A DNA stretch of 64,000 bases from Bryobacterales bacterium (GTDB lineage: Bacteria; Acidobacteriota; Terriglobia; Bryobacterales; UBA6623), in the NCBI GenBank assembly GCA_965218555.1, contig OZ244625.1, positions 247,492 to 311,491 of the forward strand, given 5' to 3'. Numbering within the stretch: the first letter of the stretch is position 1; the number at the start of each line of letters is the position of its first letter. This document shows positions 3,197 to 59,290 of this stretch, in pieces. Below the pieces are notes generated by a model, which saw only the letters and a program-made list of their open reading frames with translations, was not told where the DNA came from and did not search any database. The translations under genes were made by a program, and so were the position numbers.

Positions 3197-4345
3197 ATGC
3201 TCAGATTTGTCCCCTTGACCTTCAAGAATCTGCTTCGGAATCGCCGCCGTACGATCCTGACCGTCGCCAGCATCACGATGTCGCTCCTGCTGGTCGGCGT
3301 GCTGCTGTCCGTCTATTCGGCGTTCTATTTTCGCGGCGGCACCGAGGAGGAAGCTCTACGCCTCATCGTGCGGCACCGCGTGTCGCTGGCAATGGAGTTG
3401 CCGCAGTATTACGAAAGCCGCATCCAAGAGGTCGACGGAGTAGAAACCCTGACAAAGTTCTCATGGTTCGGGGGTAAATACAAGGACAATCGCCCGGAGG
3501 AGTTCTTCGCGCGATTCGCCGTCGACCCCGAACAGGTTTTCAAAGTCCTTACCGAGGTCAGCATCCCGGAAGACCAATACCAAGCCTGGCTCCGCGATCG
3601 GCAGGGCATCGCGATCGGCAGCTCCGTCGTGAACCGGACCGGCCTGCAACTCGGCGACCGCTTTACCCTCGTCGGCGACATCTACCCCATCAACCTCGAT
3701 GTCGTCGTCCGCGCCATCTTCGACGGCCCCGAAGACAACAACAGTTTTTTTCACTGGAAGTACTTCGAAGAGAGTTTGCCCGAGAACCGCAGGGGAGAGG
3801 TCGGGACGTTCTACATTCGAGTTCGCTCCCCTGACGACGTACCCCGTGTCGCCCAGGCCGTCGATGACATGTTCCGGAATTCGCCCCAGCCGACCAAGAC
3901 CGAAACCGAGCGCGCCTTTCAACTCGCCTTCGTGAGCCAGATGGGCAATGTCAAGCTCTTCCTGCTGAGCATCGCGGGCGCTGTCGTCTTCACGATTCTG
4001 CTGGTGTCGGGCAACACGGTCGCGATGTCGGTCCGCGAGCGTATTCAGGAAATCGGCGTTTTGAAGACTCTCGGCTTCACTTCGGCCACGGTCTTGTCAA
4101 TGATCATCGCCGAAGCGGTGCTCATCGCGTTCGTCGGAGGGGTGTTGGGGACTGCTTTGACCTACTTGGTGACAGGCCTCGCCACCGAAATGCTGGTCGG
4201 TTTCTTCGAGGGACTCATCCTGCCCTGGTGGGGAGTGTTCTTTTGCCTCGGTATCGCCCTCCTCATCGGCATCATCAGCTCGATCGTGCCGGCGATCATC
4301 GCGGCGCGCACTCGAGTCACCGATGCGCTCCGCCACGCCGGCTGA
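3197..4345 (+). CDS. ABC transporter permease, FtsX/MacB type (1 of 2)
   Basis: ATG at 3197 gives the canonical N-terminus MLRFVPLTFKNLLRNRRRT. A large periplasmic loop is followed by a C-terminal FtsX bundle (VRERIQEIGVLKTLGFTSATV). The ORF-track start at 3038 is treated as an upstream extension. Confidence 0.85.
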   Translation: MLRFVPLTFKNLLRNRRRTILTVASITMSLLLVGVLLSVYSAFYFRGGTEEEALRLIVRHRVSLAMELPQYYESRIQEVDGVETLTKFSWFGGKYKDNRPEEFFARFAVDPEQVFKVLTEVSIPEDQYQAWLRDRQGIAIGSSVVNRTGLQLGDRFTLVGDIYPINLDVVVRAIFDGPEDNNSFFHWKYFEESLPENRRGEVGTFYIRVRSPDDVPRVAQAVDDMFRNSPQPTKTETERAFQLAFVSQMGNVKLFLLSIAGAVVFTILLVSGNTVAMSVRERIQEIGVLKTLGFTSATVLSMIIAEAVLIAFVGGVLGTALTYLVTGLATEMLVGFFEGLILPWWGVFFCLGIALLIGIISSIVPAIIAARTRVTDALRHAG

Positions 4346-4363
4346 CAACCATACATCCCCGCC

Positions 4364-5539
4364 ATGGCCATCCCTCTCTCGTACAACTTCCGGAATCTGT
4401 TCGTCCGCAAGACGACCACCATCATGACGGCGCTGGGCATCGCCCTCTCGGTCGCCGTGCTGGTCGGAATCAGCGCGCTGGTCGGCGGCCTCAACGGCGC
4501 GCTCGCCGTGACGGGCGATTCGCTGCACGTGATTGTCATGCGCCAAGGCTCGACGGCCGAGCTCAATAGCACCGTCACCCGCGAGCAGTTCCAGAACCTC
4601 AAGTTCATCGAGGGCATCGCCGAAGAGAACGGTGAGCCGATGGCGTCGCTCGAAGTGCTCACGGTGTTCAATCTTCCGTTCCGGAGCAACCCCGACGAGG
4701 TCGCCAACGTGAATGTCCGCGGACTCCCTCCGATGGGCATCCGACTCCGCGAAACGGCAGGAACCCTGCAGATCTCCCGCGGCCGCTGGTTCGAGCACGG
4801 CAAGCGCGAAGTGGCGGTCGGCCGCGGCATCTTCGAGACGAACGAAGGAACCTCCATCGGTGACAAGCTCGACTTCGGCCGCGGCGAGTGGGAAGTCGTC
4901 GGCGTTTTCGACGCGGGCAAATCCGCCTACAACAGCGAAATCTGGGCCGACGCCAATCTGCTCACCATCGACCTCGGCCGCGGCGGCACGTTGAGCACCG
5001 CGTTACTCCGGGCGACAGACGAAGTAACCGCCGCGACACTGAAAAACCGCGTTGCCGACGACCAACGGCTCTTGCTCGAGGCGCTCAGCGAACGCGAGTA
5101 CTACGAGAAGCAGACCACATCCGGCCAACCAGTTCAGGTTCTGGGCGTGTTCGTCTCGATCATCATGGCCATCGGCAGCAGCTTTGCGGCAATGAACACG
5201 ATGTACGCCGCCGTCGCCCGGCGCGCTCGCGAAGTGGGCGTTCTACGGATGCTGGGCTTCTCACGCGGCAGCGTACTGCTCTCGTTCCTGTTGGAGTCGC
5301 TGCTGCTTTCCTTGTTGGGCGGGATGCTCGGTTGTCTGCTTGTTCTCCCTTTGGATGGCCTTGGCGGCCGGATCGGAAACTTCGTGACGTTCAGTATCAC
5401 CACCTTCGAGTTCGAGATCACGTCCAGCGCGCTATTGCTCGGCATGAGTTTCGCGGCGGTCATGGGTGTGCTGGGGGGAGTGCTCCCGGCGCGTGTGGCG
5501 GCGCGGCAGGAGATTCTCGGCTCGATGCGCAACGTATAG
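4364..5539 (+). CDS. ABC transporter permease, FtsX/MacB type (2 of 2)
   Basis: MAIPLSYNFRNLFVRKTTTIMTALGIALSVAVLV N-terminus and C-terminal RRAREVGVLRMLGFSRGSVL FtsX motif. The TAG stop at 5537-5539 is shared with the repeat insertion site. Confidence 0.85.
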   Translation: MAIPLSYNFRNLFVRKTTTIMTALGIALSVAVLVGISALVGGLNGALAVTGDSLHVIVMRQGSTAELNSTVTREQFQNLKFIEGIAEENGEPMASLEVLTVFNLPFRSNPDEVANVNVRGLPPMGIRLRETAGTLQISRGRWFEHGKREVAVGRGIFETNEGTSIGDKLDFGRGEWEVVGVFDAGKSAYNSEIWADANLLTIDLGRGGTLSTALLRATDEVTAATLKNRVADDQRLLLEALSEREYYEKQTTSGQPVQVLGVFVSIIMAIGSSFAAMNTMYAAVARRAREVGVLRMLGFSRGSVLLSFLLESLLLSLLGGMLGCLLVLPLDGLGGRIGNFVTFSITTFEFEITSSALLLGMSFAAVMGVLGGVLPARVAARQEILGSMRNV

Positions 5540-5718
5540 CCTACATTTCTCACCACCTGACGGCCGAAGCACGCGATACGACCGCCATGACTTCGTTGCG
5601 CTTGCTTGCCGTGCTCGATGTACTTTCAAGTACACCTGCGCGCGACAAGCGGCTCGCGTCTCGTCCTGCCGGCCCTCTCACCCACTTCGTCTCGCCACGT
5701 GGTAAGAAATACAGGCTA
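5537..5718 (+). mobile_element. family-1 MITE-like element, copy A (TA-flanked)
   Basis: TA|GCCTACATTTCTCACCAC...GTGGTAAGAAATACAGGC|TA. Same ~180-bp sequence as 22427, 46195, 48821 and 59104. Sits between permease 2 and the HlyD adaptor gene. Confidence 0.75.
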
Positions 5719-5810
5719 GTCGGCCTCACGGCTGAGGCGGGGCCGAAACCGCTACACTGCAAACTTGCGTCAGCGGCTGCAAACCCCGGCCGGCCGTCTC
5801 GACAAGATCA

Positions 5811-11830: not shown

Positions 11831-11860
11831 GGCCGGCCCTCACGGGCCGGCCTTTTCCTT
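11831..11860 (+). terminator. rho-independent terminator after the receptor gene
   Basis: GGCCGGCCC-TCAC-GGGCCGGCC perfect 9-bp GC stem followed by TTTTCCTT, 28 nt after the stop codon. Confidence 0.6.
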
Positions 11861-12111
11861 GCGCTCGTCATCCGGCCGTGACGCGCGCTCTTCCGCGTTT
11901 GCCTCACGATCCAACAGGCATCTACAATCAGCCCACGGGTGCAGGTGGGTGTCTGCGCCATCCCGTCCCGGAGGACGCGCCCGCCGCTTACCGTCGGATA
12001 CGCAGTTGTGAGTCGTCCGGAGAAACCATCTCGCTTCGGTTCGGCATGCTTGACGGCCGCACTGGCTATCGTTTTGTCGTGGGGTTGCGCCGCCCCGACG
12101 TCGACGGAACA
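11844..12111 (+). repeat. 268-bp direct repeat, copy 1 (duplicated 5' region of the gene at 12975)
   Basis: Aligns base-for-base with 12811-13078 (constant offset 967). I counted roughly 20 substitutions and saw no indel. Confidence 0.9.
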
Positions 12112-12235
12112 ACGGCATTCCGGACCGAGCGCCCTTGGCCGCCGACGGCCGAAGTACAGGATGAAGCACTCGTCCCAAGGTGCTTGCGCTCGTTCCACCA
12201 GAACGCGGTGCAGTCGGCGATGCGTGAGACAATGA
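11939..12235 (+). pseudogene. duplicated, truncated 5' fragment of the haem/monooxygenase/TPR lipoprotein gene
   Basis: Encodes the same signal peptide and lipobox (VSRPEKPSRFGSACLTAALAIVLSWGCAAPTSTEQ from the GTG equivalent at 12008). It diverges at 12112 into an unrelated basic tail and stops. Confidence 0.55.
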
Positions 12236-12378
12236 ACTGCTTGTCGAGCCGTACCGGCGGCGTATGGCGGCGCACGTGAGCGACAATACAGAGTACAAGC
12301 CCTTGCCGTGGCCGCACGAGGCCGTGGTGATCGGTCAGATGATGTGAATGGGGAGGACGTTGTGAGAAGGTATAGGCG

Positions 12379-12684
12379 ATGAGCGCTGAACTGATCGGCA
12401 TTCTGAGTGTGGGTGTTGCGCTGGCGGCACTCCACGTGGCAAGTATCAAGGGCTTGCGCGAGGACATGAACGCAAGCATCAAGGGCTTGCGCGAGGACAT
12501 GAACGCAAGCATCAAGGGCTTGCGCGAGGACATGAACGAAAGTATCAAGGGCTTGCGCGAGGACATGAAGGTCATGGAGAATCGCCTGGACTCCCTGGAG
12601 CAACGCATGGCGCGGCTGGAAGGCGTGCTGGACGGCTTGCGCGAGGCGCTCTTCGAGCGCGCCCGCGAGCGGGTGTCGGAATGA
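12379..12684 (+). CDS. small membrane-anchored coiled-coil protein with 4 x 11-aa tandem repeat
   Basis: 101 aa. Hydrophobic N-terminus AELIGILSVGVALAALHVA, then four repeats of SIKGLREDMNA (last repeat ends KV), then MENRLDSLEQRMARLEGVLDGLREAL. The weak RBS lowers confidence. Confidence 0.5.
   Translation: MSAELIGILSVGVALAALHVASIKGLREDMNASIKGLREDMNASIKGLREDMNESIKGLREDMKVMENRLDSLEQRMARLEGVLDGLREALFERARERVSE
12442..12573 (+). repeat. 33-bp x 4 perfect-register tandem repeat (in-frame inside ORF 12379-12684)
   Basis: Units at 12442, 12475, 12508 and 12541: AG(T/C)ATCAAGGGCTTGCGCGAGGACATGAA(CGCA/CGAA/GGTC). Confidence 0.95.
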
Positions 12685-12810
12685 CGCTTCTATCAAAGCG
12701 GCAATGGGTGTGTATCGGCCCCGATTCGGGTGTTCGATGTTCCCACAACCATACCTCCTATCTCTCTCCCCCCTGTGGTTATCCCTGTATTCCCGGAGGC
12801 CCCGCCTCGC

Positions 12811-13078
12811 GGGCCGGCCTTTTCCTTGCGCTCGTCCTTCGGCCGTAACGCGGACTCTTTCGTGTTTGCCTCACGATCCAACAGGCATCTACAATCAGCC
12901 CACGGGTGCAGGTGGGTGTCTGCGTCATCCCGTCTCGGAAGACGCACCTGCCGCTTCCCGTCGGATACGCAGTTGTGAGTCGTCCGGAGAAACCATCTCG
13001 CTTCGGCCCGGCATGCTCTACGGCCGCACTGGCTATCGTTTTGTCGTGGGGTTGCGCGGCCCCGACGTCGACGGAACA
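12811..13078 (+). repeat. 268-bp direct repeat, copy 2 (native 5' region of the gene at 12975)
   Basis: See copy 1. It includes the degenerate terminator-like hairpin, the leader and the first ~35 codons of the intact gene. Confidence 0.9.
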
Positions 13079-22392: not shown

Positions 22393-22426
22393 CGTCTTCG
22401 ACTCGCGGCCGATCGGGGTCCGCGAT

Positions 22427-22609
22427 TAACCTGCATTTCTCACCACCCGACGGTCGAAGCACGCGATACGACCGCCATGATTTCGTTGCGCTTGCTTGCC
22501 GTGCTCAATGTACTCTCAAAGTACACCTGCGCGTGCCAAGCGCCTCGCGCCTCGTCCTGACCGCCCTCTCACGCACTTCGCCTCGCCACGTGGTGAGAAA
22601 TACAGGTTA
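22427..22609 (+). mobile_element. family-1 MITE-like element, copy B (TA-flanked)
   Basis: TA|ACCTGCATTTCTCACCAC...GTGGTGAGAAATACAGGT|TA. Its right end plus the TA forms the TAA stop (minus strand) of the gene at 22607-25087. Confidence 0.75.
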
Positions 22610-27106: not shown

Positions 27107-28090
27107 TTATTGGAGGCTCAAAGAGCCCGTGAACATCAGCGCTCCATAGAGAGCGTCGTCGAGATCGATATCGGTCGTGAGACGGATGTAGCGACCGCCG
27201 TTTCGGAGTGCGACGTACTCAACGTCGTGGGCATGTTGCTCGAAGGCCGCAACGTAGTCGTCGATGACCGGGCGGTCTACGCTCATCCGCAGCACTTCGC
27301 CGGACTCAGCGTCAACCAGCTCGAATTCTCCCTGGTCGGCGGGAGCGGCGTCCTCGGGTCCGACGATGTGAATGAGCATCAACTCTTGCCCGTAGTCGGC
27401 AAGGTACTGGAGGGCACGTTGCTCATTGCCGTCGCTGAGGAAATCGGACAGGATGACCGTGAAACCCGAGGAAGGCGCCGTTTGCAAAAACTGCCGTGCG
27501 GCGCCGGCGAAGTCGGAGCGGCCGCCGGTGGACAGTCCGCCAATGAACTGCGACGCGCCCGCGAAGCGGTGGCGACCTCCCTCGGAGCGGAAGTTTTCCG
27601 CCATGACGTTGGAGAACGGCTGGATGACGATCGACTCGAGCCTTACCAGTCCGATGTAGCAGAGCGCCGCCGCCAAACGGCAGGCATAGGTAAACTTCGG
27701 TTCGCCGCCTTTCTCGGAAGGGCCGCAGGACATGGACTCGCTGGTATCAATCATCAGCCGCACCGGCGTGCGCGGCTCGGTGCGGAACATTTTCACGAAC
27801 AGGCGGCCGAGCCGGAGATAAGCACGCCAATTGACCGAGCGCAGATCGTCCCCCTGCTGGTAGTGGCGGTGATCGAGGAATTCATGGCCCGCGCCGGCGT
27901 AACGCGAGAGGTTGTTGCCCCCCAGCAAACCCTGAAACGACTGCTGCCAGCGGATCGCAAGGCGCTCGAGGCGCTCGAGGGTCTGGCGGTCGAGGAGCGG
28001 ATCGGGCGCTTGCACGCATTTCAGACTAGCAGAGGAAAGGGGAGGGGCCGGTGCTCCGCCGGACACCACCTGTGTGCGCGGACACTTCAT
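27107..28090 (-). CDS. DUF58 domain protein
   Basis: ATG at 28090 (MKCPRTQ...). GHEFLDHRHYQQGDDLRSVNWRAYLRLGRLFVKMFRTEPRTPVRLMIDTSESM is the DUF58 core. The ORF-track extension to 28585 runs through repeat DNA and is rejected. Confidence 0.85.
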   Translation of the reverse strand: MKCPRTQVVSGGAPAPPLSSASLKCVQAPDPLLDRQTLERLERLAIRWQQSFQGLLGGNNLSRYAGAGHEFLDHRHYQQGDDLRSVNWRAYLRLGRLFVKMFRTEPRTPVRLMIDTSESMSCGPSEKGGEPKFTYACRLAAALCYIGLVRLESIVIQPFSNVMAENFRSEGGRHRFAGASQFIGGLSTGGRSDFAGAARQFLQTAPSSGFTVILSDFLSDGNEQRALQYLADYGQELMLIHIVGPEDAAPADQGEFELVDAESGEVLRMSVDRPVIDDYVAAFEQHAHDVEYVALRNGGRYIRLTTDIDLDDALYGALMFTGSLSLQ

Positions 28091-28113
28091 TTGCGGCACA
28101 TTTTTAGCCGAGA

Positions 28114-28143
28114 AATTCCGGGCAATTCCGGGCAATTCCGGGC
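28114..28143. repeat. 10-bp x 3 tandem repeat AATTCCGGGC just upstream of the DUF58 operon
   Basis: Exact units at 28114, 28124 and 28134, 24-53 nt upstream of the ATG at 28090 (minus-strand gene). Possible operator or promoter element. Confidence 0.7.
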
Positions 28144-28184
28144 AGGGAACCAAGGCGGTGATTCGGGAAAAGCCGCGACTCGGG

Positions 28185-28306
28185 ATTCGTGTCTCGTGAT
28201 TCGTGATTCCTGAAAAACCGTTGGAAGTTGCTTGGCGCCGCTCAAGAAAGAAACGCCGGACAGCCGGTGAAACCCCCTCCCGTTTGCGCCGCGCATCACG
28301 AGACAC
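28185..28306 (+). repeat. family-2 repeat unit (GTGTCTCGTGAT ... ATCACGAGACAC), copy left of the terminase pair
   Basis: 12-nt inverted motif at 28189-28200 and 28295-28306. The core TTGGAAGT..CGCTCAAGAA.GAAACGCC.GAC.GCCGGTGAA...CGTTTGCGCC is shared with 30432-30554 in the same orientation. Confidence 0.75.
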
Positions 28307-28358
28307 CCGTCGAAGCGTAGGCCATCTGCCGAAAGCCGCAGCCGCCCGCGCCGCGTAC

Positions 28359-28386
28359 CACGAATCACGGCCTTTTCGAGACACGG
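28359..28386. repeat. 28-nt inverted-repeat arm (left) bracketing the terminase cassette
   Basis: CACGAATCACGGCCTTTTCGAGACACGG is the reverse complement of 30736-30763 at 26 of 28 positions. It ends 2 nt before the TerL stop codon. Confidence 0.7.
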
Positions 28387-28388
28387 AA

Positions 28389-29858
28389 TCACAGCACTCC
28401 CCGCACGAAACCGCCGGTCGCGCGCACCCCATGCGAACCACGGTCGAAGTCGGGGGGGTTCCCTTGGTAGTACCGCTTGCGGACGGGCCGATAGTCGAAG
28501 ACCTCGACCGGCACGTCGGCGGCGCAGAGGCCCAGCGCCGCGGCCCAGGCGCGGTCGGCGTGGCTTTTTTCTGCGTGCCCTCCACCCTTTCCTTCGAAGC
28601 CGCCGTGCACGTCGAAGCGGACGTTGCCCGCCGGGGTGACGACCCGCCGCAGCGAGTGCAGATCGGCGCGGACCGCGGCGTCCACCGGTATCCGCAGCCG
28701 CCGGTCTTCGGCGTACTGCTTCAACAGCGTGGCCAGATGCTGCTTGGTGTCGGCGGTGAACAGCACGCCCTCGACGCGGCGGGCACCGTAGCGCCTCTTG
28801 GCTTCCTCGGTGGGCGCTTCACCCATGCCGGTCTGGTCCATCGCGATCCGCAACGGCCGGTAGCACGCCACCAATTCATCGAGCGCGGCGGCCTGGGCGG
28901 CGAACGAGGCCCGCCGCAGGGTGCGCACCTCGCTCGTCCACAGCACGTCGCCCACGCGCTCCCACACCCAGCCGACCCACAGGTCGCGGCGGGCCGCGAT
29001 GTCGTTGCCGATGAAGGCCGGTCCGCCCGTGAACCCTTGGGGATCGCCGGCGCGCTCGTGCTCGACGCCGGCCAACAGGTCGTACGGGAGCCAGGCGCTC
29101 GCCTCGTCGAGCCACTTCAACTCGTATTCCTGAGCCCAGGCGTCGGGGTCACCGAGGCCGCGCCGCAGCAGGTCCACGTCGCGCGGCAACCCCTCGGCGA
29201 CCGCCCGATGAATATCCACCACGTGCCGCGACCAGGGGTTTTTTTCCTCCGCGAGTTCCTCGGGGTCGGTCATCAGCTCATGGAACTTGTTCGCTTTGCC
29301 GTTGGGCGTCGAGACCACCCGGAGCTTGTGGCCGGCCGAGATCACCGGGAACAGCGCCGCCCAGATCTTGCGGCTGTCGGCGTGGAAGGCGAACTCGTCG
29401 AGCAGCACGTTGGCCGAGAAGCCGCGCGCCGTGTCGGGATGGGCCGGCAGGGCCGTGACGCGCGAGCCGCCCGCCAGCCTGACCTCCAGGGCCTTGACCT
29501 TGGCGCCCTCCAGGTAGTCGTTTTCAACATATTCGTAGGCCCTTTGGAGGGTCTGCAGATGCCGTTTGACGCCTTCTTCCATCGTTTCCCGCGCCTGCCG
29601 CTCGCCGCGCGAGAGGATCACCCAGCGCGCCGCGCCTATTTTTCTCCGCCCGCTCCGCTCGGCGTCCTCGGCGTCGATGCAATCGAGGACGATCTCGAGC
29701 GTGGCCGTGAAGGTCTTGCCGGTCTGGCGGGCGAACATGCCGGCCTTGAGGCGGCTGGTGTCCGCCAGCCAGCGCTGCTGGTAGGGATAGAGGACCGGGC
29801 TGCGGGCGGCGGGCGGGATTTTTCCTTCGTACGCGCTCCCAGGTGACTCAGACGCCAT
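28389..29858 (-). CDS. phage terminase large subunit (Mu gp28 / Terminase_6-like), intact
   Basis: ATG at 29858 (MASESPGS...). Walker A-like FARQTGKTFT and Walker B VLLDEFAF. C-terminal RNaseH-like nuclease acidic blocks are IGNDIAARRD, IAMDQTGMGE and SHADRAWAAAL. The ORF-track start at 30059 is rejected. Confidence 0.8.
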   Translation of the reverse strand: MASESPGSAYEGKIPPAARSPVLYPYQQRWLADTSRLKAGMFARQTGKTFTATLEIVLDCIDAEDAERSGRRKIGAARWVILSRGERQARETMEEGVKRHLQTLQRAYEYVENDYLEGAKVKALEVRLAGGSRVTALPAHPDTARGFSANVLLDEFAFHADSRKIWAALFPVISAGHKLRVVSTPNGKANKFHELMTDPEELAEEKNPWSRHVVDIHRAVAEGLPRDVDLLRRGLGDPDAWAQEYELKWLDEASAWLPYDLLAGVEHERAGDPQGFTGGPAFIGNDIAARRDLWVGWVWERVGDVLWTSEVRTLRRASFAAQAAALDELVACYRPLRIAMDQTGMGEAPTEEAKRRYGARRVEGVLFTADTKQHLATLLKQYAEDRRLRIPVDAAVRADLHSLRRVVTPAGNVRFDVHGGFEGKGGGHAEKSHADRAWAAALGLCAADVPVEVFDYRPVRKRYYQGNPPDFDRGSHGVRATGGFVRGVL

Positions 29859-30405
29859 AGATCTCCCGGATGATCTGGCGCACCCGCTCGGGGTCGCTGG
29901 CGGCGCGCTTGGCGTCCTTAGCCTTGGCGGCGGACTCCTCGGCGGCCTGGCGCTTGGACTCGCGATCACAGCGGAGGGCGATCTCTCTGGAACGCTCCAG
30001 GCGCTCCGCCACGAGGCTGATCCTGGCGACGCTCTCGATGACGCCGGGCATCGACTCATCGTCGATCTCGAGATCCTGGAGCCGGAAGCTGAGGTCGAAC
30101 ATCAGCCTACGCATCATCGCGGTGACGAGGTGGCCGAACTGCCCGTCGGGCACCGAGCCGAGCTTGTCGGCCCAGACCTCGGTGACCTGCCGTGATTGGA
30201 GCACCTGCTCGCAGGCCGCCCGTATCCGCTGGTCGTAGCGGTTGACGGCCTGCCGGCTGACACGCTCAGCCAGCCCCAGCTCGTCGAGCAGGGCGTTGGT
30301 CCGCTCCGTCGCCTCGGTCTGTGTGATGGCGGGGTCGCGCAACCAGCCGTGGAGCGCCTCGCGGACGTCGCTCGGGAGCCGCTCGATTCTGCTGGTCTGT
30401 GACAT
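29848..30405 (-). CDS. Mu gp27-like (DUF3486) small terminase subunit
   Basis: 185 aa. SRIERLPSDVREALHGWLRDPAITQTEATERTNALLDELGL...VSRQAVNRYDQRI matches the gp27-family N-terminal HTH region. 11-nt overlap with the TerL start. Confidence 0.65.
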   Translation of the reverse strand: MSQTSRIERLPSDVREALHGWLRDPAITQTEATERTNALLDELGLAERVSRQAVNRYDQRIRAACEQVLQSRQVTEVWADKLGSVPDGQFGHLVTAMMRRLMFDLSFRLQDLEIDDESMPGVIESVARISLVAERLERSREIALRCDRESKRQAAEESAAKAKDAKRAASDPERVRQIIREIYGV

Positions 30406-30431
30406 TTTTTCTACTCAGACCTCAAAAGGCC

Positions 30432-30554
30432 GTGATTCGTTCTCGGGTCTCGGGAAAACCCTTGGAAGTGGTCCGGTGTCGCTCAAGAAGGAAACGCCTG
30501 ACGGCCGGTGAACATTCCTTTCGTTTGCGCCACGGATCACGCATCACGAGACAC
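30432..30554 (+). repeat. family-2 repeat unit, copy right of the terminase pair
   Basis: Direct copy of 28185-28306, offset about 2241 bp. Ends with ATCACGAGACAC at 30543-30554. Confidence 0.75.
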
Positions 30555-30627
30555 GGCTTTCCTATCCACATGCTATGCAGGCCGGGCCGGGGAAACAAGA
30601 CTGAAGCCCTTCAGTACCAAAGGCCGG

Positions 30628-30767
30628 AAATCCGTGATTCGTGTCTCGTGTCTCGTGTTTCGGGAAAACCATAAAGCCCGTGATGCGGGCGGCGGCGGCT
30701 TCCGGCGAAAGGGCTATGGCTCGACGGGGGAGAAGCCGTGTCTCGAAAAATCCGTGATTCGTGTCTC
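30628..30767 (+). repeat. family-2 repeat cluster: identical 20-mers AAATCCGTGATTCGTGTCTC at both ends plus the right arm of the 28-nt inverted repeat
   Basis: 20-mers at 30628-30647 and 30748-30767. The right inverted-repeat arm CCGTGTCTCGAAAAATCCGTGATTCGTG is at 30736-30763. Confidence 0.75.
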
Positions 30768-30934
30768 ATAATGCACGGCGCTCGATCTCGTCCATCGAGC
30801 GGGGTTGTCCCTGTTGTACATCTTTCGTCAGCCGCTACGAAATCCCGAATCCGTCCGTCAGCCAGTACACCCGCCACCGTGCAACAGACCGGAACGCTTG
30901 TCAGACGGGTACCTGGGTATGATGGAGCAAATCG

Positions 30935-40871: not shown

Positions 40872-41894
40872 TCACACCGTTCCCGCCATCGCGGCGACCT
40901 CGCTGATCCGGACGGGGCGGTGCTCGGCGGCGGAGAGGTAGCACGCTTCGACCACGGCAACCGTCTTGCGCAGATAATCGGTCGCTTCGGAGGCAAACTC
41001 CCGGCCGCTTGTCAGGCAATCCACGAAATGCTGTTGGGTGGCCCGGCAACTGTCGCCGCGGTAGCCCGGCAGCCCCTCGGCGGAGAATGTTCGTTCCTCT
41101 CCCAGCAGGACATCGCCGCTGTGGCGCAGGCGAATCTTGTTCTCGAGGCCCTCGATGCGGACGGTCTCCATCGCCGGTCCCGGCTCATCAGGCTCGGAAA
41201 TGCGATTGCCGTCGATCAGGCCGCACAAGCCGCCGCGGTGCCGCAGCATCAGCATGACGAAGTCCTCGGCCCGGACGACGGGGTTGAGCTTTGCGGTTTG
41301 GCAAAAGACTTCGTCGATGCCGCCGAACAGAAAGCGCATCGTATCGATGTGATGGACGATCGCCTCGATGACGAAGAACCGCGCCATGTCCTTGAAATAG
41401 GGCTGCTTCGCGAAGGGCTTGTCGCCGACGCCGTCGCGCTGTCGCGTCGCGACGTGATAATAAAACGGCCGGCCGATACGGTTTTCGTCCAACAGCGACT
41501 TGATGTGCCGGTACCAGGCCTGCCAGCGCCAGTTTTCGTTGAGCATGAGACGGATGCCGTTTCGCCGCGCCGTCTTTGCGATGCGGACCGCTTCCTCCCA
41601 GGTGTCGGCCATCGGTTTCTGGCAGAGGGTCGCAATGCCCCGCTTGGCGGCTTTCCGGACCAGCGGCAGATGGCCGGCGGGACGTGTGGCGATATCGAGG
41701 AAATCAGGCTTCTCGGCGTCAAGCATCTCATCGTCATCGCTGTAGCCCTTCAGGTCGAAGTCCGCGCTGAATGATTGCAGCCGCTCGACATCGATATCGC
41801 AAGCGGCAACGATCTCCGCTCCTTTGACCCGCTTCCAACTCTTCATCTGAATCCGGCTGAAGTAACCGCAGCCGACCGTTACGCCCCTGAGCAT
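40872..41894 (-). CDS. Gfo/Idh/MocA-family oxidoreductase
   Basis: ATG 41894 is preceded by AAGGAGAGGAACC. Rossmann N-terminus MLRGVTVGCGYFSRIQ...AEIVAACD, and the CQKPMA family motif. Confidence 0.85.
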   Translation of the reverse strand: MLRGVTVGCGYFSRIQMKSWKRVKGAEIVAACDIDVERLQSFSADFDLKGYSDDDEMLDAEKPDFLDIATRPAGHLPLVRKAAKRGIATLCQKPMADTWEEAVRIAKTARRNGIRLMLNENWRWQAWYRHIKSLLDENRIGRPFYYHVATRQRDGVGDKPFAKQPYFKDMARFFVIEAIVHHIDTMRFLFGGIDEVFCQTAKLNPVVRAEDFVMLMLRHRGGLCGLIDGNRISEPDEPGPAMETVRIEGLENKIRLRHSGDVLLGEERTFSAEGLPGYRGDSCRATQQHFVDCLTSGREFASEATDYLRKTVAVVEACYLSAAEHRPVRISEVAAMAGTV

Positions 41895-42044
41895 GGTTCC
41901 TCTCCTTGGTCCCGTCTGGATTTTCTCCTCTGCCGGATCGCGGCTGGCGGCGAGAATCCGCTCATCTCGAATTTCCCATCGATTCTTTCCTTTCGCCAAG
42001 CCGATATTCTATTGTTTCGGAGCGGAAGCCGACAGCGGACGGAC

Positions 42045-45000
42045 ATGCCCGGTCGATTATTCACTCAATATTTCCTCACCGACGGCACAAAGACGACCGT
42101 CGAGTGGAATGCTTCCCTCGCCCAACCCGAGGCCTTCGCCCGGTTCAAAGACGACCTCCGCCGCCGGTACGAGACCGTGAAGGGGTTCCAAGACCCGAAT
42201 GAAGCGGTGACCGAGCAAAAGCTGATCCTACCCATTCTGAAACTCCTGGGATGGATCGACTCCCTGCCCCAGCAAGGCGCCTCTCGAAACGAGGACATCC
42301 CCGACCATCTTCTGTTCGAGGACGCCGAGTCGGCGAGGCGGGCTGCTGCAAAGAAAATGCCCGGGGATCGCTACCGGGATGCTTTGGCGGTGGAAGAGAG
42401 CAAGCGGTTCGGCTTCGCTCTGGATGCCCGCGATCAGGACGGCAAGACGCCGGCCCGCACACCCCACGGCCAGATCCTCAGATACCTCTCGACGGCCGAG
42501 ATCGAGTCTGACAACCGCATCCGATGGGGAATACTGACGAATGGCAAGGTTTGGCGCCTTTACGACCACCATGCCCGGCCTCGCGCCAGCGGCTACTTTG
42601 AAGCAGACCTGACGGAGCTGCTCAAGCCGGGCCAGGAAGATCGTCTTCGTCTCTTCCACCTGCTGTTTCGCCGCGATTCCTTCACCCTCAGACAAGGCGC
42701 AACCACCACGTTCCTGGAACACGCTTTGGCGGAGGGGAGACGCTATGAGAGACAGGTCGCCCAGGATCTGTCGGGCGTCGTCTTCGAGAGCGTCTTCCCC
42801 AAACTCGTGGAGGCTCTGGCGAATGCCACAGGGGAAAACCTGCCCCGGGTGCGCCAATCCGCCCTGATCTTCCTCTATCGACTGCTCTTCGTGCTTTACG
42901 CCGAGGACCGGGACCTGCTGCCGGTCAATGACCGGCGTTACGACGACTACGGCTTGCGCAAACGCGTGCGGGACGACATTGCCCGCAGGATGGCGGACCG
43001 CGACGTCTACTCGTCCATGGCCGCCAACTACTATGACCGCCTTGTCAATCTTTTCAAAATCATCGACAAGGGCGATCCGTCCATCGGCCTGCCGCCCTAC
43101 AACGGCGGCCTGTTCGCGCCGGAAGCCGCGCCCCTGCTGGAACAGGCGCGCCTGCCCGACGCCGTCATCGCTCCCCTCATCTACGACCTCAGCCACACGC
43201 AGGAAAAGGACGGAGGCGGGAGGCGCTTCGTCAACTACCGCGACATGTCGGTGCAGCAACTCGGCTCGATTTACGAGCGTCTCCTGGAGCAGGAGCCGGT
43301 CCGCGACGATGAGGGTAAGATCTCCATCAGGCCCAATCCCTATGCCCGCAAGGACAGCGGCAGCTTCTTCACGCCCCAGGAGCTGGTGGATCTGATCGTC
43401 GACCGAACCTTGAAGCCGCTGGCGGAAGAACGTCTCAAAGCGTTCGAAGACAAAGCCGCCGAGCTCAAGAGCGACCGCCGGCCCCGGGCTCAGCGGGAAG
43501 TCGAACTGCTCAAGCTGGACCCGGCCGAGGCGGTCCTGAATCTGAAGGTCCTGGACCCGGCCATGGGAAGCGGACATTTCTGGTCACCGCAGTGGACTTC
43601 CTTTCCGACTATGTCGCTGAGTTGATCGAGTACGTCCCCGTGGTCCCGGAGTGGCTTGACGGCGGCTATGTTTCACCCCTGGTGAAACGTGTGGCGGCGG
43701 TTCGCAGCGAGATCCTCCGACGGGCCGAAGAATCGAACTGGGTCCTCGACGAGGCCCAACTCAGCGACCAGGCCATTATTCGCCGCATGGTGCTCAAGCG
43801 GTGCATCTACGGAGTGGACAAGAATCCCCTGACCGTCGAGCTGGCCAAGGTGTCGCTGTGGCTGCACAGCTTCACCGTGGGCGCGCCATTGTCCTTTCTG
43901 GACCACCACCTGCGCTCCGGTGATTCGCTGATCGGCCTTCGCGTCGGGGAGGCCATTCGGGAACTCCAGCGGCTCGGCGGCATCTTTACCGGCAGCGCCA
44001 TTGCGGGGGCGGAGGCGGCTACGGACGGCATGCTGCTCATCGAGGAGATGTCCGACGCCGACGTGGCCGAGGTGCGGGCGTCGGTTGCCTTGTTTCAAGG
44101 CGTCGAGGAGACGACGGCGGAACTCCGCGGGCTGCTCGATTTTCTTTGCGGCCTGGGTTGGCTGACCGCCGGCATGAAGCAGAAAGCGCGCGCCGCTTTC
44201 GAGACTCCTCTCTTCGCGACACTCGGTCGGCACCTCGACCATGCCTACCCGCTGTTGGCCAGGGGTCCGGGCAGCGTCGCCGCCATGCCTGCTGACGAGA
44301 ACTCTACCTGGACGGCGTTCCAAGGGCTGTGGTCAGACGCCCGGTCCATCGCCGACCGGGAGGGCTTCCTGCATTGGGAGGCCGCCTTTCCGGGAGTGTG
44401 GCGCTCTTGGAATGACATCCGTCCGGAAGGCGGTTTCGACGCTGTGATCGGCAATCCCCCCTGGGACCGGATCAAGCTTCAGGAGGTCGAGTGGTTCGCC
44501 ACTCGCAAGCGAGAACTGGCTCTGGCGCCGACGGCGGCCGCACGGCGCGCCGCCATCAGGCTTCTTCGCGAACAGGGGGACCCTCTTGCAGCCGAGTTCG
44601 ATGCCGCCAAGGAGCAGTCCGAGAGCCTGAGCCGGATGGTGCGGTCCTGTGGCGACTACCCGCTGCTGGGCGGCGGCGACATCAACCTGTACTCGCTGTT
44701 CGTGGAGCGGGCCATGAGCCTGATCAAGCCGGACGGCTTTGTCGGCCTGCTGACGCCGTCGGGCATTTGCGCCGACAAGACCGCGGCCCGTTTTTTCAAG
44801 TCCGTTTCCACTACCGGACGAGTAGGCGGCGTGTTCGATTTTGAAAACCGCCGCCTTGGGACCAATCTGCCACCCTTCTTCCCGGACATCGACTCACGAT
44901 TCAAGTTCTGCGCCCTCGTGTTCGGCGGAGAGAAACGGCAATTCGACCAGACCGAGTGCGCTTTCTTCCTGCACGACACGAAAACGATCCGCGACAAGGA

Positions 45001-46096
45001 CCGTTGCTTTCCGTTGACGCCCGCCGACTTCGCCCGCGTGAACCCGAACACCGGCACCGCACCCGTTTTCCGCACCCGCCGGGCCGCCGAGATCACCCGC
45101 CGTATCTATGAAAGGCACCCGGTGCTGGTGGATCGCTCAGCGGATGAGGAACGCCGCGTCTACCCGGTGAAGTACGTTCGCATGTTCGACATGACCAACG
45201 ACTCCGGCCTGTTCCGCACGCGCGAGGAGCTGGAGGAAAAGGAAGGCGCGTATCCCATCGGCGGTAACCGCTTCTCCAGTCCGTCCGGAGAGTGGGTGCC
45301 GCTTTACGAAGGCAAGATGGTGCAGGCCTTCGATCATCGCGCCGCCAGCATCGTCGTCAACCCCGAGAACCAGCACCGCCCCGCGCAGCCCAAACCGGCC
45401 ACTCTTGAGCAGCACAAGGATCCGAACTGGCTGTCCGATCCACAATTCTGGGTTTTGGCGAAGGAAACAGGGTTTTCCGTCATGCCCTTCATCCTTGGCT
45501 TCAAACACGTGACCGCGCCTACCAACGTCCGCTCAATGATCGCAGCGTTGATCCCCGGCGTTGGCGCAGGAAACTCCCTCCCATTGTTGATGGGATCGAA
45601 CGGACTGACAGCCAGTGCTGTTGCGGCTCTAGTTGCCAACCTCAATTCTGTACCGCTCGATTATGTCGTGCGGCAGAAAGTTCAAGGACAAAACCTCAAC
45701 TGGTTCATTATCGAGCAACTCCCTGTCGTCCCGCCCGACCGCTACGAGGCCGTCCGCTTCGGCCCTAAGACGGCCGGTCAGATTGTCCGAGACGCAGTCC
45801 TTAAGTTGACCTACACGGCCCACGACATGACGCCCTTCGCCCGCGCCCTCGGCTACCACGGACCGCCGTTCACCTGGGACGATGAGCAACGCCGCCACCT
45901 GCGCGCCCGGCTCGACGCTCTGTACTTCCACCTCTACGGTCTCTCCCGTGAGGACGTAAGCTACGTGCTGGACACATTCCCGATCGTTCGCCGGGAAGAC
46001 GAAGCCGAGTTCGGCCGCTACCGCACCCGCGACCTCATTCTGGCCTACATGAACGCCCTCGCCGCCGGGGATGCGACGACGGTCGTGGCAATGTAG
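42045..46096 (+). pseudogene. type IIG restriction-modification enzyme (N-terminal PD-ExK nuclease + gamma-class N6-adenine methylase + C-terminal specificity region), split by a frameshift at about 43580
   Basis: Nuclease block IPDHLLF...ALAVEESK...WGILTNGKVWRLY. Methylase motif I VLDPAMGSGHF|LVTAVDF is broken between the two ORFs (a C appears to be missing from CATTTC-CTGGTC). Motif IV VIGNPPWDRIK. The C-terminal family blocks are PLYEGKMVQAFDHR and YGLSREDVSYVLDTFPIV. Confidence 0.8.
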
Positions 46097-46194
46097 CCCC
46101 TCCGGGGACCACCTCAAGAAGCGTGAGCCTCCTCGTCGGCCTCCTCTTCGTCTTCGGAACCTCATATCCAAACTGACCACGAACCACCAGCCCC

Positions 46195-46387
46195 TAACCT
46201 GCATTTCTCACCACCCGACGGTCGAAACACGCGATACGACCGCCATGACTTCGCTTTTCCTTCGCAGCGCTTGCTTGCCGTGCTCGATGTACTCTCAAGT
46301 ACACCTGCGCGCGCCAAGCGGCTCGCGTCTCGTCCTGACGGCCCTCTCACGCACTTCGCCTCGCCACGTGGTGAGAAATGCAGGCTA
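46195..46387 (+). mobile_element. family-1 MITE-like element, copy C (TA-flanked, ~14-bp internal insertion)
   Basis: TA|ACCTGCATTTCTCACCAC...GTGGTGAGAAATGCAGGC|TA. It has extra GCTTTTCCTTCGCA relative to the other copies. Confidence 0.75.
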
Positions 46388-46784
46388 ACCACTGTCTTGA
46401 CCACCGCTCGTCCAAGCTACACATCACGAGACTCGGATCAAGAGCCACTGACTACGGACACGGTGGGAGAGGGAGCGCGGAGGAGTCATGCGTTCACTTT
46501 GAGTTGATGCTCATAGGCGAAATCCCGGACGTTGGCGCTTTCCCCCGCATGTTCCATCGTCATGGAGGCGAGGTTTCCCTTGCTCATCCAGATCCGGGTA
46601 AATGTTCTCAGACGCGTCGCGGGTCTCGGCGGCCCGCTCCGAGGTGAACTCAATCAGTGCGGTGGCGGTATTTTCAAACTAGTGGGTCTGCATTCCCTTT
46701 TCGTTACTCTCGGTGCGTTCCCCGCAGCCGTGGCTTAGCAAGACGGACGGAGCACCCTCTTTCCGGGACGTGTTGCGCAGTTTT

Positions 46785-48493: not shown

Positions 48494-48823
48494 ATGACAG
48501 GCTATCGAGAGTCCGGCTACCCGTTGATTCAGGCTCGCGGGCAGGAAGGACGCTTCGAATACCAGGGGCTGTCATTGCGGCTCGGGTTGTTTCACGACGA
48601 AGAGGGCTGGTACATCGGCGTACACATGTCTTCCGGGCGCATGTGCGCTCGGCTCAGCTTGGAGCACGCCCGCAGCCAAAAAGAGGCAAATGACATGTTG
48701 AGGTACGGGTTCTTCCTGCGAACCGAGGAAGTGCCCGAACTTGTGGAACATCTGCAGTCGATCGGTCTGCTTTCCGTACCAACGCCGGCGGCCTTGGAAG
48801 ACCCGGTCGAGAACCCCGTCTAG
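48494..48823 (+). CDS. hypothetical protein
   Basis: Only the last ~110 codons of the 266-aa ORF-track call look protein-like (MTGYRESGYPLIQARGQEGRFEYQGLSLRLGLFHDEEGWYIGVHM...). No motif recognised. The TAG stop coincides with the TA target of MITE copy D. Confidence 0.3.
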   Translation: MTGYRESGYPLIQARGQEGRFEYQGLSLRLGLFHDEEGWYIGVHMSSGRMCARLSLEHARSQKEANDMLRYGFFLRTEEVPELVEHLQSIGLLSVPTPAALEDPVENPV

Positions 48824-49001
48824 CCTGCATATCTCACCACCTGACGGGGGAAGCACGCGATAAGACCGCCATGACTTCGTTGCGCTTGCTGGCCGTGCTC
48901 GACGTACGGTCAAGTACACCTGCGCGCGCCAAGCGCCTCGCGCCTCGTCCTGACGGCCCTCTCACGCACTTCGTTTCCCCACGTGGTGAGAAATGCAGGC
49001 T
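48821..49001 (+). mobile_element. family-1 MITE-like element, copy D (TA-flanked)
   Basis: TA|GCCTGCATATCTCACCAC...GTGGTGAGAAATGCAGGC|TA, 60 nt upstream of the acyl-CoA synthetase start. Confidence 0.75.
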
Positions 49002-49060
49002 AGCCGAGACGGATCTATATCCTCTCGGCCCGTCCAAGACATCGCTTCCGTGCGGGGCTG

Positions 49061-59024: not shown

Positions 59025-59103
59025 AGCGCCTATTGTAAATTGATCAGGGATCAGGCGCCGCCGGCGGAACTTTTGCTCCCCGGCCGGAGTGCAGGATGAG
59101 GGC

Positions 59104-59290
59104 TAGCCTGCCTATCTCACCACCTGACGGGGGGGGGAGCACGCGATAGGACCGCCATGACTTCGTTGCGCTTGCTTGCCGTGCTCGATGTAGGGTCAAG
59201 TACACACCTGCGCGCGCCAAGCGGCCCGCGCCTCGTCCTGCCGGCCCTCTCACGCACTTCGCCTCCCCACGTGGTGAGATATGCAGGCTC
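59104..59290 (+). mobile_element. family-1 MITE-like element, copy E (TA / TC flanks)
   Basis: TA|GCCTGCCTATCTCACCAC...GTGGTGAGATATGCAGGC|TC. Sits in the divergent intergenic region 35 nt upstream of ATG 59325. Confidence 0.75.

Follow-up and report, generated by a model that had tools for sequence, protein, structure and literature searches.

Two intact Mu-type terminase genes in a Bryobacterales genome as the probable relic of an internally deleted transposable prophage

Why would a bacterial chromosome hold two intact phage terminase genes and no other gene of the phage? This question is raised by a 64,000-nucleotide stretch of DNA from a Bryobacterales bacterium (contig OZ244625.1, positions 247,492 to 311,491; hereafter called the window), in which a gene for a gp27-type small terminase subunit overlaps a gene for a large terminase subunit of the Mu gp28 type. 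An earlier note on this DNA, made from the letters alone, had described the pair as an orphan module bracketed by repeats, and had offered three explanations: a prophage remnant trimmed by recombination between repeats, a repeat-bounded 2.4-kb cassette that was mobilised, or a domesticated DNA-translocase/nuclease pair. Having compared the locus with related loci, we consider it likely that the DNA from 28073 to ~30900 is what remains, fixed in place, of a Mu-like transposable element after internal deletion, and thus a defective prophage remnant. The parts of this locus are as follows.

28068-28072 and 30911-30915, no strand: ACCTG, a possible 5-bp target duplication (sequence and empty-site alignment; host-like sequence may continue past 30911)
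28073-28144, minus strand: right end of the element, Mu-type (comparison with loci L006 and L007 and with relic loci)
28181-28311, minus strand: family-2 unit on the downstream side of the large terminase, oriented like the upstream one (nhmmer E 6e-43)
28306-28386, no strand: inverted unit, right-hand copy, which includes the 28-nt arm 28359-28386; 2 nt separate the unit from the large-terminase stop
28389-29858, minus strand: large terminase subunit, Mu gp28 type, 489 aa, intact (open reading frame, Pfam and PHROG)
29848-30405, minus strand: gp27-type small terminase or DNA-recognition subunit (DUF3486), 185 aa, intact (open reading frame and PF11985)
30431-30556, minus strand: family-2 unit, upstream, between the promoter-like element and the gp27 start (nhmmer E 3e-37)
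30570-30615, minus strand: late-promoter-like element upstream of gp27, a 16-bp dyad plus TAGCAT
30685-30763, no strand: inverted unit, left-hand copy, which includes the 28-nt arm 30736-30763; an identical copy exists in locus L084
30764-30910, minus strand: left boundary segment of the insert, unlike the inverted right end; 30771-30861 is common to the sister relic in locus L001

The description of the locus as holding only two phage genes, which overlap, is borne out. Both open reading frames (ORFs) are real, and tblastn with 17 proteins of a fuller Mu-like element, including the MuA transposase of L006, finds no other Mu-like gene in the 64-kb window. Portal and MuF genes are likewise missing after the large terminase throughout the window, and at E 1e-4 to 1e-5 the flanks of the pair show no remains of portal, lysis or DUF2730 genes. 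The 185-aa protein covers positions 1-172 of the 173 in the Phage_Mu_Gp27 profile (PF11985, E 9e-32) and matches PHROG 426, ‘terminase small subunit’. The 489-aa protein matches Terminase_6N (PF03237, E 1e-22), Terminase_6C (PF17289, E 1e-19, profile positions 1-153 of 155) and PHROG families annotated as large terminase. As read from the sequence, the gp27 stop and the large-terminase start overlap by 11 nt (ATGGCGTCTGA), and the same overlap is found in L001, L002 and L084. A portal gene had been said to follow the large terminase normally, and the gene neighbourhoods agree: a Mu portal gene lies no more than 600 nt downstream in 63 of the 76 informative loci of this terminase family, which makes the orphan state the exception.

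The large terminase also keeps the Walker A-like QTGKT, the Walker B LLDEF and the three acidic blocks that had been recognised in it. In the family profile, its ARQTGKT, LLDEF and STPNG align with SRQLGKT, IYIDEC and TTPNG of T4 gp17, which we take to be the Walker A motif, the Walker B motif with the catalytic glutamate, and the C-motif. These ATPase motifs are invariant in 17 and in 25 relatives, and the same holds, fully or almost so, for the acidic blocks GNDIA, MDQTGMGE and HADRAW (17 relatives; 25-sequence alignment). Within the 25-sequence alignment, residues D286, D341, E347 and D435 do not vary, and the C-terminal half, searched as a family profile, matches the solved large-terminase nuclease domains 5tge and 5m1f (E 4e-4 to 2e-3). 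The large terminase thus looks enzymatically competent; gp27 is a fast-evolving small subunit. Neither protein matches a defence-system family in PADLOC-DB 2.0 at E <= 0.01.

It had been remarked that no stop or frameshift interrupts the pair over ~2 kb. Both ORFs are indeed intact, but this is weak evidence by itself because the DNA is 67% G+C, and the strand opposite the large terminase carries an antisense ORF of 547 aa (28203-29846, plus strand) that is a by-product of the high G+C content.

The closest relatives are long-read assemblies labelled Bryobacterales (Acidobacteriota). In the window the pair lies in an insert of ~2.8 kb (28073 to ~30862-30910) in the short intergenic region between a wzt-type ABC-transporter gene and a DUF58 gene. 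The terminase is missing at this site in eight loci of more distant relatives, whose DUF58 protein is 82-89% identical; in seven of the eight empty-site loci the ABC and DUF58 genes are divergent and 32-93 bp apart, and in the eighth (L139) a methyltransferase gene lies between them. Host-like sequence reaches 28072 next to one edge of the insert; beyond the opposite edge it begins somewhere between 30862 and 30911, and this left junction cannot be placed to the base since the intergenic DNA of the empty sites is too diverged.

The sharp edge of the insert has the character of a Mu-type right end. Read on the minus strand, three 10-bp repeats (GGAATTGCCC type, 28108-28144) are followed by the terminal motif GCAAATGAAGTGTCCGCGCACA (28094 to 28073), such that the window sequence runs ...GGAATTGCCCGGAATTGCCCGGAATTTC...GCAAATGAAGTGTCCGCGCACA and finishes at 28073. 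In the fuller elements L006 and L007, the likeness between the two stops exactly after ...CAAATCAAGTGTCGCCTCACA, which is itself preceded by ATTGCCCGG repeats. The right-end motif occurs once in the window; L004 and L084 have it next to the same host DNA as here, whereas in L001 and L085 it adjoins other host DNA. With up to five mismatches allowed, neither the window nor any relic locus contains an inverted copy of the motif (attL), and the left edge aligns with the inverted right end at a score of 12, against 9.3 +/- 1.6 for shuffled sequences, 45 of 500 of which reach it. These two results speak for the rejection of a two-ended mini-Mu. A scan of viral_contigs with CAAATCAAGTGTCGC returned 45 single, chance-like matches, and no contig was matched twice.

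Fuller and more decayed relatives of the insert are at hand. L006 and L007, which are 97-99% identical, carry genes for a MuA transposase, a Mor-family protein, lysozyme, holin, DUF2730, gp27, large terminase, portal and a fusion of MuF with an ADP-ribosyltransferase. L002, L003 and L013 are fuller but scrambled remnants, and Mu-like tail, portal and MuF genes are scattered in L002, L013 and L017. A 3.8-kb fragment in L005 (7797-11589), which extends from lysozyme to the first 250 nt of the portal gene and is 99% identical to L006/L007 in the same genome, shows that partial copies with terminase genes have been generated repeatedly.

Several of these loci are also worth describing in their own right. 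L006 (1-15740), L007 (1-15757) and L010-L012 (to ~15676) are Mu-like transposable elements that have, besides the genes just listed for L006 and L007, early genes and the dyad promoter described below, and they hold no head or tail genes. They end at a common terminus, after which different host genes follow, and each genome has two or three copies at 97-99% identity. Such capsid-less elements may be a satellite-like form of transposable phage.

The sequence upstream of gp27 offers a second link to Mu. A perfect 16-bp dyad, ACTGAAGGGCTTCAGT (30600-30615), which is the sole copy in the window, is followed after a 24-nt spacer by TAGCAT (30570-30575), and there is no -35 hexamer. Mu late promoters have a -10 hexamer and no -35 element, and their activator C binds a 16-bp dyad centred at -43.5 (PMC2582627); the predicted centre of the window dyad is near -44.5. 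The combination of dyad and TAGCAT at 24-25 nt spacing is kept in 18 of 21 copies, and the sequence of the spacer varies. The dyad of L006/L007 lies 45 nt after the Mor-family gene (PF08765), just before the lysis genes, and a weaker hexamer, TAGGGT, follows it after 24 nt. In the scrambled remnants L002, L003 and L013 the dyad heads the lysozyme gene, and in every relic it heads gp27. No sigma-70 consensus promoter was found on the strand of the pair. This geometry suggests that the dyad and TAGCAT constitute a late promoter dependent on a Mor/C activator, and that, as long as no related Mu-like element provides that activator, the pair is probably not expressed.

If the insert is a relic, then how long has it been at this site? 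The insertion is found at the same site in three other Bryobacterales contigs, L004, L084 and L138. In L004 (OZ242366.1) both flanks have 89-91% nucleotide identity with the window, and the right junction is common to the two. By Nei-Gojobori estimates, the flanking genes of window and L004 differ by a synonymous rate (dS) of 0.25-0.36, with a non-synonymous to synonymous ratio (omega) of 0.12-0.25. The corresponding values are dS 0.38 and omega 0.29 for the large terminase (p 1e-16 against neutrality), and dS 0.35 and omega 0.72 for gp27 (not significant). Because the dS of the pair (0.35-0.38) matches that of its flanks, the pair appears to have been at the site since the lineages split, and this argues that the insertion is old and vertically inherited. 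The suggestion of a recent arrival, which had been drawn from the intact state of the ORFs, is refuted by the same junction in genomes whose flanks have diverged to this extent.

Other copies extend this picture. The same-site copy in L084 is followed, directly after the large-terminase stop, by an inserted IS630-family (DDE_3) transposase gene (L084 5414-6457). A sister relic, equally trimmed, resides beside smc in L001, L008 and L085, and window positions 28118-30861 are 85% identical to the L001 copy, non-coding flanks included. Over the two sites the pair is intact in six of seven copies. The exception is L138, a close relative of L004 at the same site, which is without gp27 and lacks residues 1-143 of the large terminase, with the rest of that gene in three frames. 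These deletions cannot be read errors, although the frameshifts might be. The decayed relic of L138 (1-2600) has the promoter motif in two full copies.

Rates of substitution within the pair only partly support the view that its ORFs are intact through selection. The large terminase has omega 0.29-0.38 (p <= 3e-8 against neutrality), which indicates purifying selection; gp27, at 0.7-1, is not distinguishable from neutral, and gene conversion may explain why the frames are intact. Indels among the copies are all in frame. When the comparison of window and L084 is confined to conversion-free parts, omega is ~0.6 (29 non-synonymous versus 16 synonymous changes, p 0.11). Copies borne by the elements have a Nei-Gojobori omega of 0.2-0.5 for the large terminase and 0.4-1.1 for gp27. 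We rejected the use of these ratios to separate relic from element-borne copies, since by this crude method element-borne omega is no lower than relic omega; the test probably lacks power because a third-position G+C content (GC3) of 0.88-0.90, as measured in the pair of the window, saturates synonymous sites early.

A further process that could keep the copies alike is evident from sliding-window identities, which form mosaics that follow shared assembly or sample and not site. Identity is 98-100% between L001, at the smc site, and the scrambled remnant L002, both from one assembly, and 95-97% between L004 and L013, both from one genome. In L084, the 3' half of the large terminase agrees at 96-98% with L085, which comes from the same sample, but only at 78-93% with the window; the 5' part of that gene and gp27 agree with the window at 96-98%. 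The tracts reach non-coding DNA as far as the right end. Because tracts of 95-100% identity occur within one assembly or sample, the sequences indicate that relics in one genome are homogenised by gene conversion. GC3 is 0.88-0.90 in the terminase pair (28389-30405) versus 0.73-0.79 in the flanking host genes, which would fit biased gene conversion or a foreign origin.

What, then, is the role of the repeats that seemed to bracket the pair? The 28-nt inverted repeat (28359-28386 and 30736-30763) is real, with 26 of 28 positions matching where none would be expected by chance, and its arms are part of an inverted unit of ~80 nt (28306-28386 and 30685-30763). The direct family-2 units are likewise real and flank the pair on both sides; nhmmer finds both, and the two are 79% identical over 87 gapless nt. 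The bracketing as such fares less well. The arms of the inverted repeat lie inside the insert and not at its edges (28073 and ~30862-30910), and the inverted units have no match in same-site L004 or in the sister copy L001, both of which are intact. For these reasons the bracket is not the boundary of a mobile unit.

The two kinds of repeat also differ in where else they occur. All three matches of the family-2 profile in the window fall within the insert, and ~80 kb of empty-site loci gave no match; the full-length matches that we traced to gene positions (L001, L002, L003, L008, L084, L085) are in or adjoin Mu-like remnants. Relatives of the inverted unit likewise occur within other Mu-like remnants (L002 4562-4625, 14809-14867 and 18482-18551), but the heptamer arrays (CACGAAT/CACGAGA) that compose its arms are also present in host intergenic DNA of related genomes.

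The family-2 unit at 28181-28311 has terminal inverted repeats, GTGTCTCGTGATTCG and CGCATCACGAGACAC, and in L008 and L085 family-2 units are often in tandem with the promoter motif. In L085 (3281-5487) and L008 (7500-9000), arrays of family-2 unit plus dyad promoter lie upstream of gp27 with a period of ~270-370 bp, and L085 further has a second, diverged gp27 gene (3825-4391) and a fifth copy of the promoter downstream of the large terminase (8072). The idea that the family-2 unit might be a structured RNA was rejected after RNAalifold on 20 copies gave -0.64 kcal/mol, five pairs and one compensatory change.

These observations can be arranged into the following history. A Mu-like element would have inserted between the wzt-type ABC-transporter gene and the DUF58/BatA/VWA operon of a Bryobacterales genome. 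What appears to survive, on the minus strand, is a Mor/C-type late promoter, gp27, the coupled large terminase, ~70 nt of the right end and the short repeats between them. The transposase, regulators, lysis genes, portal, MuF and left end would have been lost, and because these are gone the relic should be unable to move or to package DNA by itself. It is a reasonable guess that the deletions arose by recombination between repeats. Hence the first of the three explanations offered for the pair holds as to the remnant, given the right end, the late promoter and the fuller and decayed relatives; the proposed route of trimming is plausible and goes no further than that.

The relic may have persisted partly through residual purifying selection on the large terminase and also because, within one genome, gene conversion repeatedly copies one sister relic over another. 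Clean deletion was perhaps awkward as well, as the insertion split a tiny divergent promoter region. The ABC-transporter gene start (30935) is now 20-70 nt from inserted DNA, and 64 nt separate the DUF58 start from the right end. A single sigma-70-like site was found (30743-30772), which is inside the insert and directed at the ABC gene. Because the insert split a divergent promoter region of less than 100 bp, imprecise deletions could harm the neighbours. On the other side, the DUF58/BatA/VWA operon may have acquired an altered promoter or 5' end through the insertion. The database version of the DUF58 protein (P0121, 327 aa) begins ~81 nt upstream of the start used here, within the right end (28009-28094).

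Not everything sits easily with a decaying relic. Surveys find that incomplete prophages tend to lose their terminase and portal genes first (PMC7744054), and a terminase-only relic that is intact in six of seven copies at dS ~0.35 is not predicted by plain decay, which is unusual although not decisive. The gp27 frame has been kept despite an omega of 0.7-1. For both sites to show the same trimming, either a single trimmed ancestor would have had to move or conversion would have had to act over wide tracts. A second large terminase, P0016, which is 76% identical to that of the window, is assigned to the source genome. Moreover, the activity of the promoter and its dependence on an activator are predictions from the geometry of its sequence. 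All these points weigh against our preferred explanation.

A rival view is that the pair serves a function. Domestication is possible but unproven, and one form of it would be an exapted, helper-dependent module that becomes active when a lytic Mu-like element or phage supplies the Mor/C activator; candidate roles are packaging interference, complementing defective elements elsewhere in the genome, or initiating headful packaging of neighbouring host DNA in borrowed capsids. We regard such a module as unlikely. It would account for a pair that is intact in most copies at two conserved sites with invariant catalytic motifs, for the purifying selection on the large terminase, for the conservation of dyad and -10 hexamer on either side of a variable spacer, for the retained translational coupling, and for a retention that runs contrary to the general early loss of terminase genes (PMC7744054); the family-2 units, being confined to remnants, could be recognition sites. 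Yet the pair has been lost in L138 at the same site, omega in the conversion-free parts of window and L084 (~0.6) is not distinguishable from 1, gp27 is close to neutral, and relic omega is no different from that of element-borne copies. Neither a PADLOC family match nor a capsid or portal partner in the 64-kb window points to a function, and conversion among relics explains intactness without selection at the locus. A more specific version, to which we give still less credence, is that the relics are kept as helper-activated packaging modules: upon expression of Mor/C by a related Mu-like element, the capsid-less ones of sister genomes among them, they would yield a functional gp27/large-terminase enzyme that would either sabotage the packaging of an invader or start headful packaging at adjacent sites, for which the family-2 units are candidates. 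If true, the two fixed relic sites would be launch pads for the transduction of neighbouring host genes.

Two further explanations seem very improbable to us. According to one of them, the pair belongs to a repeat-bounded cassette or mini-Mu that moves as a unit and is mobilised in trans via flanking repeats. The same trimmed unit, 85% identical, does occur at both the ABC/DUF58 site and the smc-side site, its right end abuts host DNA at both, a possible 5-bp repeat flanks the insert, and related genomes hold multi-copy, near-identical Mu-like elements. This idea is nonetheless largely refuted, and with it the 2.4-kb cassette: the insert runs from 28073 to ~30862-30910, beyond the inverted repeat, which is therefore internal and whose units are unmatched in L004 or L001; no relic has a left end that corresponds to its right end; the insert has kept its site over a dS of ~0.3; and the likeness of the two sites follows shared assembly or sample, as expected from conversion rather than transposition. 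The other holds, with about as little to commend it, that the pair is the dispersed packaging module of a system resembling a gene transfer agent, whose head and tail genes are elsewhere in the genome. Mu-like tail, portal and MuF genes are indeed scattered at other loci (L002, L013, L017), where the same late-promoter motif heads lysis genes, but scrambling, duplication or truncation marks the loci concerned, a capsid gene turned up in none of the loci that were read, and a gene transfer agent does not need two or three terminase pairs per genome.

How does a defective Mu-like relic of this kind compare with known systems? The cryptic prophage relics of E. coli K-12 keep isolated packaging-gene homologues of the nohA/nohD type. 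As in such prophages, a few phage genes reside in the window at a fixed chromosomal site, are inherited vertically, yield no particles and are seen in stages of decay in relatives. Unlike them, the window keeps only two terminase genes, a predicted late promoter and one element end, and its pair is intact after substantial divergence, at two sites, and homogenised by gene conversion. The locus also resembles the late region of Mu (Plys, gp27/gp28, gp29 portal, attR) in the order of gp27 and gp28-type terminase, in a 16-bp dyad whose centre lies ~44 nt before the inferred start and which is accompanied by a -10 hexamer but no -35, and in an element end that finishes in CA with repeated sub-terminal motifs. 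It differs from Mu in being without transposase, Mor/C gene, lysis genes, portal and left end, and its proteins are no more than distant relatives of the Mu proteins.

Phage satellites with packaging genes provide another comparison, in the form of phage-inducible chromosomal islands (PICIs) and Staphylococcus aureus pathogenicity islands (SaPIs) with small terminases, and of capsid-forming PICIs. The relic shares with them chromosomal packaging genes without a full virion set, and its expression would be helper-dependent. In contrast to these satellites, it has no integrase, replication or regulatory module or excision ends, is immobile, and encodes the large as well as the small subunit. Gene transfer agents such as RcGTA have terminase genes, g1 and g2. 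Similar to RcGTA, the relic has host-resident small and large terminase genes under purifying selection; unlike it, the relic is without an adjacent head and tail cluster, is present in several copies per genome, and is decaying in at least one lineage.

The remainder of the window contains other repeats and one gene of note. A dispersed repeat of ~200 bp is present in five copies that are 66-93% identical (5519-5722, 22409-22609, 46177-46391, 48803-49006 and 59089-59290), and occurs several times in L004 and once adjoining the relic in L008. A 281-nt duplication (11831-13078) has copies that are 92% identical and 967 nt apart, between which lie four 33-nt tandem repeats (12439-12602). The type IIG restriction enzyme gene that the earlier note had read as frameshifted is split in a way consistent with this, in that two long same-strand ORFs (41775-43625 and 43592-46096) overlap by 34 nt.

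If the locus is the relic that we believe it to be, it provides a case of transposable-prophage decay in which one end, one late promoter and two genes outlast a flank divergence of dS ~0.3. Because scattered relics keep each other intact by gene conversion, an intact ORF is no proof of domestication. There is also reason for caution in reading ‘intact and orphan’ as ‘recent or selected’ in G+C-rich genomes, where stops are rare and synonymous rates saturate. Should the relics be expressed upon induction of a helper, they would represent a new kind of helper-dependent packaging module, although the capsid-less, multi-copy Mu-like elements of related genomes may be the more interesting lead.

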